A stretch of 64,000 nt of DNA from Escherichia coli (GTDB lineage Bacteria > Pseudomonadota > Gammaproteobacteria > Enterobacterales > Enterobacteriaceae). The stretch lies in the NCBI RefSeq assembly GCF_044647545.1, contig NZ_CP172818.1; one strand, given 5' to 3'. Position numbers and translations under genes: made by a program. The first letter of the stretch is position 1, and each line of letters opens with the position of its first letter. Under the pieces are notes generated by a model. It ran no database searches and was not told the DNA's origin. It worked only from the letters and a program-made list of their open reading frames with translations. This document shows positions 22,054-33,249 of the stretch, piece after piece.

Positions 22054-22466
<413 letters not shown>

Positions 22467-22508
22467 TGCGGATAATGACATGGAATATCCGGCATTATAT
22501 TTACAGCA

Positions 22509-28572: not shown

Positions 28573-29571
<999 letters not shown>

Positions 29572-29901
29572 TTTCTTGCGTTATTTTCGGCACCTTTTAT
29601 GTAGCGAAGGTGCCGGAATATGTTCTCTTTTGTTACTTATTTCTATACCGTGCACAATATTTTTACCCCTCATATTTATAGGGTAAATTACCTGTAAAGT
29701 AGTGTCTAATTACCCGCCTAGCAAATTCCCGTTTTCAAATATCTATTTCAGGTCAAAAGATTGAATTATTCACTGGCGACGATTCGTAAATTCGCTGGAT
29801 TTTTGACTAAAGTTTCTTTAGGATTTGTCTCATCGTATGATTAATTACACCAATCGTTCAACGTCTTGCTGATAAGTGATGGCGATTATATGAGGTTAGC
29901 A

Positions 29902-30030
29902 ATGCCTTCTGGAAATCAGGAACCCCGCCGCGATCCTGAATTAAAACGTAAAGCCTGGCTGGCGGTTTTTCTTGGTTCTGCACTTTTCTGGGTGGTTATC
30001 GCACTGCTGATTTGGAAAGTGTGGGGATAA
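29902..30030 (+). CDS. ymiA: Small membrane protein YmiA
   Basis: Hand translation MPSGNQEPRRDPELKRKAWLAVFLGSALFWVVIALLIWKVWG* (42 aa, one TM segment); not in ORF track (<60 aa). Confidence 0.7.
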   Translation: MPSGNQEPRRDPELKRKAWLAVFLGSALFWVVIALLIWKVWG

Positions 30031-30032
30031 CT

Positions 30033-30200
30033 ATGGTCGGTCAGGAGCAACTGGAGTCGTCACCATTATGTCAGCATAGTGATAATGAACCAGAAACGAA
30101 ACGGGAATGTTCCGTCGTTATTCCAGACGACTGGCAACTAACATCGCAGCAGCAAGCCTTTATAGAACTGTTTGCTGAAGATGATCAGCCGAAACAATAA
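30033..30200 (+). CDS. yciX: Small protein YciX
   Basis: MVGQEQLESSPLCQHSDNEPETKRECSVVIPDDWQLTSQQQAFIELFAEDDQPKQ (55 aa), ATG 2 nt after the ymiA stop. Confidence 0.7.
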   Translation: MVGQEQLESSPLCQHSDNEPETKRECSVVIPDDWQLTSQQQAFIELFAEDDQPKQ

Positions 30201-30313
30201 TTATCATCATTCTTATTACCCATTTTTAATGAATTACAGGGCTTTTAATACACCGCAGCAATAACAGGTTGAGTTATCTCAACACAAAGTAATAACCGTT
30301 AAGGGTGTAGCCT

Positions 30314-30409
30314 ATGATCAACACAAATATGAAATATTGGTCCTGGATGGGCGCGTTTTCTCTGTCGATGCTCTTCTGGGCTGAACTCCTCTGGATCATT
30401 ACTCACTAA
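30314..30409 (+). CDS. Candidate 31-aa hydrophobic small protein upstream of acnA
   Basis: MINTNMKYWSWMGAFSLSMLFWAELLWIITH*, AAGGG SD-like motif 8 nt upstream, followed directly by a terminator hairpin. Confidence 0.5.
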   Translation: MINTNMKYWSWMGAFSLSMLFWAELLWIITH

Positions 30410-30413
30410 TCCC

Positions 30414-30438
30414 TGACCCCGCTGCGGCGGGGGTTTTC
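30414..30438 (+). terminator. Rho-independent terminator after the small-ORF cluster
   Basis: ccccgc-tgcg-gcgggg stem followed by gttttc. Confidence 0.6.
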
Positions 30439-30573
30439 ATTTGCTTTGCCACAAGGTTTCTCCTCTTTTATCAATTTGGGTTGTTATCAAATCGTTACGC
30501 GATGTTTGTGTTATCTTTAATATTCACCCTGAAGAGAATCAGGGCGTCGCAACCCTGTCATTAAGGAGGAGCT

Positions 30574-33249
30574 ATGTCGTCAACCCTACGAGAAGCCAGT
30601 AAGGACACGTTACAGGCCAAAGATAAAACTTACCACTACTACAGCCTGCCGCTTGCTGCCAAATCACTGGGCGATATCACCCGTCTGCCCAAGTCACTCA
30701 AAGTTTTGCTCGAAAACCTGCTGCGCTGGCAGGATGGTAACTCGGTTACCGAAGAGGATATCTACGCGCTGGCGGGATGGCTGAAAAATGCCCATGCTGA
30801 CCGTGAAATTGCCTACCGCCCGGCAAGGGTGCTGATGCAGGACTTTACCGGCGTACCTGCCGTTGTTGATCTGGCGGCAATGCGCGAAGCGGTTAAACGC
30901 CTCGGCGGCGATACTGCAAAGGTTAACCCGCTCTCACCGGTCGACCTGGTCATTGACCACTCGGTGACCGTCGATCGTTTTGGTGATGATGAGGCATTTG
31001 AAGAAAACGTGCGCCTGGAAATGGAGCGCAACCACGAACGTTATGTGTTCCTGAAATGGGGAAAGCAGGCGTTCAGTCGTTTTAGCGTCGTGCCGCCAGG
31101 CACAGGCATTTGCCATCAGGTTAACCTCGAATATCTCGGCAAAGCAGTGTGGAGCGAATTGCAGGACGGTGAATGGATTGCTTATCCGGATACACTCGTT
31201 GGTACTGACTCGCACACCACCATGATCAACGGCCTTGGCGTGCTGGGGTGGGGCGTTGGTGGGATCGAAGCCGAAGCCGCAATGTTAGGCCAGCCGGTTT
31301 CCATGCTTATCCCGGACGTAGTAGGCTTTAAACTTACCGGAAAATTACGTGAAGGTATTACCGCCACAGACCTGGTTCTCACCGTTACCCAAATGCTGCG
31401 CAAACATGGCGTGGTGGGGAAATTCGTCGAATTTTATGGTGATGGGCTGGATTCACTACCGCTGGCGGATCGCGCCACCATTGCCAATATGTCGCCAGAA
31501 TATGGTGCGACCTGTGGCTTCTTCCCAATCGATGCTGTCACCCTCGATTACATGCGTTTAAGCGGGCGCAGCGAAGATCAGGTCGAGTTGGTCGAAAAAT
31601 ATGCCAAAGCGCAGGGCATGTGGCGTAACCCGGGCGATGAACCGATTTTTACCAGTACGTTAGAACTGGATATGAATGACGTTGAAGCGAGCCTGGCAGG
31701 GCCAAAACGCCCACAGGATCGCGTTGCACTGCCCGATGTACCAAAAGCATTTGCCGCCAGTAACGAACTGGAAGTAAATGCCACGCATAAAGATCGCCAG
31801 CCGGTCGATTATGTTATGAACGGACATCAGTATCAGTTACCTGATGGCGCGGTGGTCATTGCTGCGATAACCTCGTGCACCAACACCTCTAACCCAAGTG
31901 TGCTGATGGCCGCAGGTTTGCTGGCGAAAAAAGCTGTAACACTGGGCCTCAAGCGGCAACCGTGGGTCAAAGCGTCGCTGGCACCGGGTTCGAAAGTCGT
32001 TTCTGATTATCTGGCAAAAGCGAAATTGACACCGTATCTCGATGAACTGGGGTTTAACCTTGTGGGATACGGTTGTACCACCTGTATTGGTAACTCTGGT
32101 CCATTGCCCGATCCTATCGAAACGGCAATCAAAAAAGGCGATTTAACCGTCGGTGCGGTGCTGTCCGGCAACCGTAACTTTGAAGGCCGTATCCATCCGC
32201 TGGTTAAAACTAACTGGCTGGCCTCGCCGCCGCTGGTGGTTGCCTATGCGCTGGCGGGAAATATGAATATTAACCTCGCATCTGAGCCTATCGGCCATGA
32301 TCGCAAAGGCGATCCGGTATATCTGAAAGATATCTGGCCATCGGCACAAGAAATTGCCCGTGCGGTAGAACAAGTCTCCACAGAAATGTTCCGTAAAGAG
32401 TACGCAGAAGTTTTTGAAGGCACAGCAGAGTGGAAGGAAATTAACGTCGCACGATCCGATACCTACGGTTGGCAGGAGGATTCAACCTATATTCGCTTAT
32501 CGCCTTTCTTTGATGAAATGCAGGCAACACCAGCACCTGTGGAAGATATTCACGGTGCGCGGATCCTCGCAATGCTGGGGGATTCAGTCACCACTGACCA
32601 TATCTCTCCGGCGGGCAGTATTAAGCCCGACAGCCCAGCGGGGCGATATCTACAAGGTCGGGGTGTTGAGCGCAAAGACTTTAACTCCTACGGTTCGCGG
32701 CGTGGTAACCATGAAGTGATGATGCGCGGCACCTTCGCCAATATTCGCATCCGTAATGAAATGGTGCCTGGCGTTGAAGGGGGGATGACGCGGCATTTAC
32801 CTGACAGCGACGTAGTCTCTATTTATGATGCTGCGATGCGCTATAAGCAGGAACAAACGCCGCTGGCGGTGATTGCCGGGAAAGAGTATGGATCAGGCTC
32901 CAGCCGTGACTGGGCGGCAAAAGGTCCTCGTCTGCTTGGAATTCGTGTGGTGATTGCCGAATCGTTTGAACGAATTCACCGTTCGAATTTAATTGGCATG
33001 GGCATCCTGCCGCTGGAATTTCCGCAAGGCGTAACGCGTAAAACGTTAGGGCTAACCGGGGAAGAGAAGATTGATATTGGCGATCTGCAAAATTTACAGC
33101 CCGGTGCGACGGTTCCGGTGACGCTTACGCGCGCGGATGGTAGCCAGGAAGTCGTACCCTGCCGTTGTCGTATCGACACCGCGACGGAGTTGACCTACTA
33201 CCAGAACGACGGCATTTTGCATTATGTCATTCGTAATATGTTGAAGTAA
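30574..33249 (+). CDS. acnA: Aconitate hydratase A
   Basis: 891-aa ORF with aconitase Fe-S cluster ligand region and swivel domain. Confidence 0.97.

Follow-up and report, generated by a model that had tools for sequence, protein, structure and literature searches.

The three tiny ORFs in the cysB-acnA intergenic region of Escherichia coli are the already annotated genes ymiA, yciX and ymiC, and it is highly probable that they form a single PhoQP-dependent transcription unit whose small membrane peptides are likely to modulate a larger membrane protein. The small-protein operon as such is already known: its genes are annotated, its translation has been validated and its regulation has been published. 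The original prediction of a small-protein operon upstream of acnA is borne out by the published ymiA-yciX-ymiC operon, which has a PhoQ-dependent promoter upstream of ymiA (PMC11429745). In addition, all of the features that had been described for the three ORFs are present at their stated positions in the sequence and the ORF listing.

Identity and conservation of ymiA, yciX and ymiC

Positions are those of the window, the whole 64,000-nt stretch of E. coli DNA that was analysed. Based on the sequence and the ORF listing, 29572-30573 is the cysB-acnA intergenic region (the cysB stop codon is at 29569-29571). This region shows 100% DNA identity to many E. coli chromosomes and was found in 5,421 of 5,426 complete genomes. 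The RefSeq names at the locus are "YmiA family putative membrane protein" (ymiA), "protein YciX" (yciX) and "small membrane protein YmiC" (ymiC). All three genes are annotated in every record listed among the 5,421 matching genomes, with the exception of one locus disrupted by IS1. The coding features are as follows.

29870-29895, + strand: conserved ymiA leader, TGATAAG (29870-29876) ... CGATT ... GAGG (29892-29895)
29902-30030, + strand: ymiA coding sequence, 42 aa from the conserved ATG (RefSeq model 29890-30030, 46 aa)
30033-30200, + strand: yciX coding sequence, ATG at 30033, stop codon at 30198-30200, 55 aa, acidic, predicted soluble
30301-30308, + strand: ymiC ribosome-binding region, AAGGGTGT, GGTGT conserved across genera
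30314-30409, + strand: ymiC coding sequence, 31 aa, MINTNMKYWSWMGAFSLSMLFWAELLWIITH, predicted single-TM small inner-membrane protein

The minus strand opposite ymiC contains antisense ORFs of 41 aa and 35 aa, which are without support.

A degenerate DNA pattern of the YmiC core was scanned over one genome per species and identified 95 loci, approximately 89 of which are from Enterobacteriaceae. The genera with the locus are Escherichia, Citrobacter, Salmonella (S. enterica subsp. arizonae), Enterobacter, Leclercia, Lelliottia, Kosakonia, Phytobacter, Cedecea, Buttiauxella, Atlantibacter, Trabulsiella, Yokenella, Pluralibacter, Superficieibacter and others. Five matches in Bacteroidota were rejected as chance (they have neither a conserved ORF nor the flanking genes), and one 454-nt 'Terrisporobacter' contig was dropped as E. 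coli contamination. The order cysB-ymiA-(yciX)-ymiC-acnA is found in every Enterobacteriaceae locus with enough flank, with the acnA start usually ~235-310 nt after the YmiC K7 codon. The ymiA, yciX and ymiC frames are all under purifying selection. The three ORFs are more than chance ORFs: they are annotated, ymiA and ymiC match curated models, and selection acts in frame across 75-82 distinct orthologous sequences.

YmiA matches both NCBIfam NF000536 (96.4 bits, cut-off 30) and Pfam PF22868 (124.7 bits, cut-off 27). Its pN/pS is 0.22 in frame versus 1.32 and 1.71 in the shifted frames. The peptide has a single-pass hydrophobic profile by hydropathy, with a KRK cluster N-terminal to the TM helix, and the gene ends with TAA at 30028-30030. 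The 42-aa ymiA with a predicted TM helix that was first described is found as such; it differs from the RefSeq model and fits the comparative data better. An ATG equivalent to that at 29902 is kept in 78 of 78 loci, in all of which it is preceded by an invariant GAGG with a 6-nt spacer. This GAGG is the Shine-Dalgarno sequence of the 29902 ATG. Only 56 of the 78 loci have an ATG at the RefSeq start (29890); another 20 have ACG, AAG or GCG there, codons incapable of starting translation. Because of this difference in ATG conservation, and because NF000536 is a 42-position model (aligning to residues 5-46 of RefSeq YmiA), the 42-aa form from 29902 is better supported than the 46-aa form from 29890. 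This comparative evidence for the YmiA start is a by-product of the analysis for annotation. The TGATAAG of the leader is also nearly invariant across the aligned loci. In published data, the main initiation signal for "yciX (ymiA)" was at a site unlike both annotated starts (Nakahigashi et al. 2016, PMC4909307).

The description of yciX as an acidic 55-aa ORF located 2 nt after ymiA is accurate: the encoded peptide has a net charge of -9, and its ATG is exactly 2 nt past the ymiA stop codon in the window. In 73 of 75 loci the two genes are separated by 1-2 nt, suggesting that ymiA and yciX are probably translationally coupled. YciX matched no model in NCBIfam or Pfam. Its pN/pS is 0.49 in frame versus 1.06 and 1.14 in the shifted frames. 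The N-terminal half is variable and the C-terminal motif VPxSWxLTxQQxAFIxxF is conserved. The residues of this motif are invariant or nearly so while the third codon positions vary (entropy 1.97 at the Pro codon), and so it is the protein that is constrained, not a DNA element embedded in the gene. A second by-product is thus evidence that YciX is a genuine protein whose C-terminal motif is conserved. Loci without yciX occur in S. enterica subsp. arizonae, Superficieibacter and a few more, and so a three-cistron unit is not universal.

The 31-aa ORF had been suspected to be an annotated small protein that could not be named with confidence. This protein is YmiC (RefSeq WP_001310756.1), with matches to NCBIfam NF041484 (66.3 bits, cut-off 42) and Pfam PF23694 (87.5 bits, cut-off 27, full length 1-31). 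The window peptide exactly matches the sequence published for K-12 YmiC, which is listed at the same place, between yciX and acnA (VanOrsdel et al. 2018, PMC6001520). The ORF was predicted to lie about 110 bp downstream of yciX with an SD-like AAGGG. It begins 113 nt after yciX, and the AAGGG is present at 30301-30305, 8 nt upstream of the ymiC ATG. YmiC is ~30 aa with one hydrophobic helix by hydropathy. An exhaustive search of representative proteins recovered only 10 YmiC-related clusters, all of which are YmiC-like. These have a variable N-terminus and a shared core of K7, Y8, W9, S10 ... S18, L20, F21, W22, E24 and L25, in which position 24 is either E or Q (KYWSW...S...LFWx(E/Q)L).

An ORF of this kind could, in principle, be a chance intergenic ORF and not a gene. 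It is very short, the 1.4 kb surrounding ymiC contains 32 ORFs of 20 aa or more, and the terminator that follows it, when folded alone, is not exceptional compared to shuffles (z = -1.1). These points are outweighed by several lines of evidence. The curated family models match. Chromosomal SPA-tagged YmiC was detected, and YmiC was also positive in tetracycline-inhibited ribosome profiling (TetRP) (PMC6001520). In a second study, a GFP fusion has been localized and ribosome profiling in low Mg2+ lends further support (PMC11429745). Epitope tagging, initiation-site profiling and conservation of the reading frame across Enterobacteriaceae had all been proposed as checks, and each supports the gene; with respect to the last, ymiC is kept in ~89 loci and is under purifying selection. 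Of the 87 loci whose downstream flank is long enough, 86 have the same distance of 78 nt between the K7 codon and the ymiC stop codon. With codon statistics restricted to the codons left free by the search pattern, ymiC has a pN/pS of 0.55 in frame versus 1.03 and 1.65 in the shifted frames. The nucleotide entropy at codon positions 1/2/3 is 1.19/0.63/1.59, the pattern expected of a hydrophobic helix, and S18 is invariant with its own third position varying freely. The tagging, the models and the conservation exclude the chance-ORF reading, to which we assign a negligible probability.

Boundaries and regulation of the transcription unit

Four features bear on the limits and the control of the unit.

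29585-29618, + strand: terminator-like hairpin after cysB, 13-bp stem followed by a T-rich tail, directly 3' of the cysB stop codon
29811-29827, + strand: PhoP-box-like direct repeat, AGTTTC-TTTAG-GATTTG (second half GATTTA in most other genera)
30417-30442, + strand: predicted intrinsic terminator ending the operon, stem CCCCGC/GCGGGG (30417-30432), loop TGCG, U-tract GTTTTCATTT
30574-33249, + strand: acnA (aconitate hydratase A), downstream neighbour, outside the small-protein unit

The hairpin after cysB bounds the small-protein transcription unit on its upstream side. Between this hairpin and the ymiC terminator, no further terminator-like site was found on the + strand.

YmiA and YmiC are among 17 small proteins induced by Mg2+ starvation (Vellappan et al., PMC11429745). 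In that study, low Mg2+ induced a reporter with the ymiA upstream region in a PhoQ-dependent manner, and RNA-seq was also used to show the PhoQ/PhoP-dependent induction. The segment immediately 5' of ymiC showed negligible promoter activity, and the authors conclude that ymiA-yciX-ymiC is an operon (PMC11429745). When the 200 nt upstream of ymiA were aligned for 75 loci, several conserved blocks were found, including the block TTTAGGATTtaTCtCA, which contains the PhoP-box-like repeat. The repeat is a weak match to (T/G)GTTTA-N5-(T/G)GTTTA (~8/12 in the window), and overlapping 3-mismatch matches are located at 29804-29820 and 29815-29831; such matches number 197 in the window versus ~139 expected, and a scan at three mismatches is therefore too loose to be informative. 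The 29811-29827 repeat is a candidate for the element behind the published PhoQP dependence, with which it agrees but of which it is no proof.

At the downstream end, the terminator hairpin that had been described directly after the ymiC stop codon is present, starting 7 nt past the stop (-14.5 kcal/mol). Termination after ymiC is predicted and conserved. A strict terminator (hairpin plus T-run) is found after ymiC in 70 of 87 loci, with the stem mostly 3-9 nt past the stop codon (mode 5). Several of the loci that fail the strict test have the element in a bulged form, a REP-like insert occupies the terminator position in some Citrobacter loci, and Buttiauxella and some relatives have kept the hairpin and lost the U-tract. 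The stems vary by genus (CCTCGC/GCGAGG, CCCGGC/GCCGGG, CCCGAC/GTCGGG and GCCCGG/CCGGGC), and all four RNAalifold consensus pairs show double, compensatory changes. From a MAFFT alignment, RNAalifold recovered the terminator core only; the spacer hairpins discussed below were out of register in this alignment and so were folded per sequence. Between the ymiC terminator and acnA there is a -10-like TAATAT (30518-30523), which could serve acnA as part of a promoter-like sequence of its own. A few substitutions and a 1-nt indel in the ymiC-acnA spacer set this strain apart from K-12.

The proximity of ymiC to acnA allows for a different reading, in which ymiC is mainly a regulatory uORF (leader peptide) for acnA and read-through into acnA depends on ymiC translation. 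Transcripts from the PhoP-dependent ymiA promoter or the distal acnA promoter P1 would carry ymiC in the acnA leader, and a ribosome finishing ymiC, 5-7 nt from the terminator stem, would hinder formation of the hairpin. A distal acnA promoter was reportedly described by Cunningham et al. in 1997, and P1 is presumably ~407 nt upstream of acnA and thus inside yciX. The gene arrangement is compatible with such a role, as acnA comes directly after ymiC in all loci with a long enough flank (~165 nt between the ymiC stop and the acnA start). The stop-to-stem distance is also short and fairly constant, but short distances of this type are common at operon ends, and the linkage of ymiC to ymiA is no less constant than that to acnA. 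Read-through is plausible in Buttiauxella and the related loci in which the hairpin is without a U-tract. In contrast, the Rfam consensus and RNAalifold both show an independent terminator stem with no conserved alternative (antiterminator) pairing, and no conserved antiterminator helix competing with the terminator and overlapping ymiC was found in either. Pure leader peptides are not usually conserved, accumulating and membrane-reaching, whereas in the ymiC peptide purifying selection maintains a hydrophobic helix and its invariant residues. The protein both accumulates and reaches the membrane (PMC6001520, PMC11429745).

Published 3' end data also bear on this question. The ymiC-acnA pair is among the candidate uORF-dependent regulators of Adams et al. 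2021. However, the 3' end that they report is at K-12 position 1335835, which is 4 nt into acnA and away from the ymiC terminator, and they scored it as independent of Rho. In the accessible parts of the published Term-seq tables, no 3' end is listed at the ymiC terminator (K-12 13354xx-13357xx). Similar to uORF attenuators such as mdtU-mdtJI (PMC7815308), ymiC is a short same-strand ORF located upstream of a larger gene and followed by a 3' end or terminator. Unlike leader-peptide attenuators, it has no conserved alternative structure, and its peptide is a conserved, stable membrane protein. A primary role of ymiC as a leader for acnA is, on balance, unlikely. The same low probability is given to a combined version, in which ymiC would also encode a membrane peptide and, together with the close terminator, would act as a translation-sensitive gate that lets a share of the PhoP-driven or acnA P1 transcripts reach acnA. 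If true, this gate would link aconitase A expression to the Mg2+ status or the translation capacity of the cell.

The yciX-ymiC spacer and Rfam STnc180

The 3' part of the operon mRNA, consisting of the yciX-ymiC spacer, ymiC and the terminator, corresponds to an Rfam family.

30241-30444, + strand: match to Rfam RF02079 'STnc180' (204.9 bits, gathering score 50, model positions 1-208 of 208)
30249-30264, + strand: conserved block in the yciX-ymiC spacer, TACACCGCAGCAATAA
30268-30283, + strand: small spacer hairpin, GTTGAG-TTAT-CTCAAC, without a U-tract

Within the spacer block, T18, C20-C22, C25, A26 and A29 are at least 90% conserved (alignment A2), and the block is also among the conserved positions of STnc180. 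The spacer hairpin is found at the same place in most of the 73 distinct spacers (median z = -1.27), with a stem sequence that differs between genera, and it belongs to the STnc180 consensus structure. This conserved non-coding block and hairpin are a further by-product of the analysis. The Rfam consensus also includes a pairing of ACACC with the ymiC SD region (GGGUGU). This pairing is unsupported: both sides are nearly invariant, and Cedecea/Buttiauxella (AGAGT) and Kosakonia (GGTAAT) alter one side without compensation.

Although Rfam lists RF02079 as an sRNA gene, most of the region that it matches is ymiC coding sequence plus the terminator. In the original Salmonella study, STnc180 comprised a group of Hfq-associated cDNAs that could not be validated as a small RNA on Northern blots (Sittka 2008, PMC2515195). 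On agarose gels it gave signals of 500-2000 nt, which the authors read as a likely processed mRNA (PMC2515195). Signals of this size fit an operon mRNA of ~560-600 nt or longer. When the STnc180 region was assessed as a discrete non-coding small RNA, it failed: it encodes YmiC, which is under purifying selection, and the Northern signals are those of long species. The STnc180 "sRNA" family is essentially the protein-coding ymiC segment plus the terminator.

The 30241-30444 RNA could alternatively be an Hfq-binding regulator, either non-coding or dual-function, that is processed from the 3' part of the operon mRNA. The conserved TACAC..CAGCAATA block would then serve as a site of pairing or processing. 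The strength of the RF02079 match is in keeping with such an RNA, as are the conserved non-coding block, the positionally conserved hairpin and the Rho-independent terminator with its U-tract. Block, hairpin and U-tract terminator are features typical of 3'-derived Hfq sRNAs. The recovery of cDNAs from this region with Hfq in Salmonella points in the same direction, but Sittka et al. saw only the 500-2000 nt species and no discrete small RNA (PMC2515195), and there is negligible promoter activity immediately upstream of ymiC (PMC11429745). Furthermore, most of the match is ymiC coding sequence in which the third positions are the most variable, as in a protein, and no target or phenotype is on record. 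An Hfq-bound regulator is unlikely; like the leader for acnA, it falls well behind the small-protein operon as an explanation of the locus.

Proposed function of the membrane peptides

The proposed model for the ymiA-yciX-ymiC operon is as follows. Transcription would start from a promoter upstream of ymiA, which is PhoQ/PhoP-dependent and induced by low Mg2+, and would end at the intrinsic terminator a few nt past the ymiC stop codon, which would separate the unit from acnA. YmiC would be translated separately from ymiA and yciX, using the weak GG-rich ribosome-binding site beyond yciX. YmiA and YmiC are predicted to be single-pass inner-membrane peptides with a cytoplasmic N-terminus, and YciX to be a soluble acidic peptide carrying the conserved C-terminal motif. 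By analogy with other small proteins of this type, YmiA and YmiC would most likely bind a larger membrane protein and adjust its activity or stability under Mg2+ limitation. For YmiC, the contact surface may be formed by the conserved polar residue E/Q24, which is located within the helix, and the helix face S10-A14-S18-W22.

The small proteins on which this analogy is based are MgrB, MgtS and PmrR. The partners of these proteins are PhoQ for MgrB, MgtA/PitA for MgtS and LpxT for PmrR, whereas none is on record for YmiA or YmiC. Like YmiA and YmiC, all three are smaller than 50 aa, have a single TM helix, are found in the inner membrane and are induced by low Mg2+ via PhoQP (PMC11429745). YmiA and YmiC have no sequence similarity to MgrB, MgtS or PmrR, and YmiC differs from them in having no deletion or overexpression phenotype (PMC11429745). 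The role of YmiA, YciX and YmiC is a modest question in small-protein biology under Mg2+ stress.

The published experiments agree with a membrane location, as both GFP-YmiA and GFP-YmiC are found at the cell periphery (PMC11429745). Deletion of ymiA or of ymiC had no effect, and overexpression of YmiC had no effect in low Mg2+; overexpression of YmiA led to a longer lag phase and longer cells (PMC11429745).

Start codon and upstream region of ymiA

The ATG at 29902, which is preceded 6 nt upstream by an invariant GAGG, is conserved in all 78 orthologous loci compared. In 20 of these 78, the position of the RefSeq start of ymiA (ATG 29890, giving a 46-aa product) is occupied by ACG, AAG or GCG, none of which can start translation. 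Judged from start codon conservation, the actual YmiA protein is probably 42 aa in length. In tetracycline-inhibited ribosome profiling (TetRP), the main signal for ymiA had already been placed at a site that matches neither annotated start (PMC4909307). The region 5' of ymiA carries several non-coding blocks with strong conservation (29741-29762 and 29795-29860), one of which contains a candidate PhoP-box-like repeat:

Conserved elements upstream of ymiA
29741-29762 and 29795-29860: conserved blocks ATCTATTTCAGGTCAAAAGATT; CTGG-TTTT; TTTAGGATTTGTCTCA; GATTA..CCAATCGTT
29811-29827: candidate PhoP-box-like repeat, inside the conserved block TTTAGGATTTGTCTCA

The yciX-ymiC spacer, STnc180 and the acnA leader

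The Rfam family STnc180 (RF02079) covers positions 30241-30444, that is, the ymiC 5' spacer, coding sequence and terminator. Rfam files this family under enterobacterial sRNA genes; it is in effect a segment of a protein-coding mRNA. Within the spacer between yciX and ymiC, positions 30249-30283 comprise the near-invariant block TACACCGCAGCAATAA and, after it, a small hairpin (GTTGAG-TTAT-CTCAAC) that is conserved in position, with a stem sequence that varies from genus to genus. Covariation was sought for the pairing between ACACC and the ymiC Shine-Dalgarno region that is proposed by Rfam, and none was seen.

A further hairpin, CAGGGCGTCGCAACCCTG, is located at 30540-30557, just 5' of the acnA Shine-Dalgarno sequence. 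In K-12, Term-seq places a Rho-independent RNA 3' end at position 1335835, 4 nt into acnA and shortly downstream of this hairpin. The hairpin and 3' end may represent a processing or pause site within the acnA leader.

Lineage variants of the operon and terminator

Five loci from the one-genome-per-species scan lack yciX: L003, L030, L090 (Superficieibacter), L034 (Salmonella enterica subsp. arizonae) and L035. As ymiC is directly downstream of ymiA in these loci (approximately 130 nt between them), the operon also occurs in a two-gene form. In Buttiauxella (L031, L036, L039, L066, L078, L079 and L088), a hairpin is retained 3' of ymiC and has no U-tract. In some Citrobacter loci (L047, L077 and L092), a REP-like palindromic insert separates ymiC from the terminator and acnA is more distant (up to +409 nt).

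Anomalous records

One scan locus, L013, lies on a 454-nt contig (NZ_JAHZMP010000227.1; coverage 1.3) from a Firmicute assembly, 'Terrisporobacter mayombei'. Its yciX-ymiC sequence is identical to that of E. coli, and the contig almost certainly entered this assembly as contaminating E. coli DNA.

The gap between the convergent genes rluB and cobO contains a low-complexity A-rich block of approximately 390 bp (22080-22467), in which long A runs are interspersed with scattered T, G and C. The rluB and cobO flanks are contiguous in other complete E. coli genomes, spanning approximately 530 bp compared to 947 bp in the window, and a query spanning the block reached at least 80% coverage in none of 5,422 genomes. 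The probable explanation for the block is an artefact of sequencing or assembly confined to this record.
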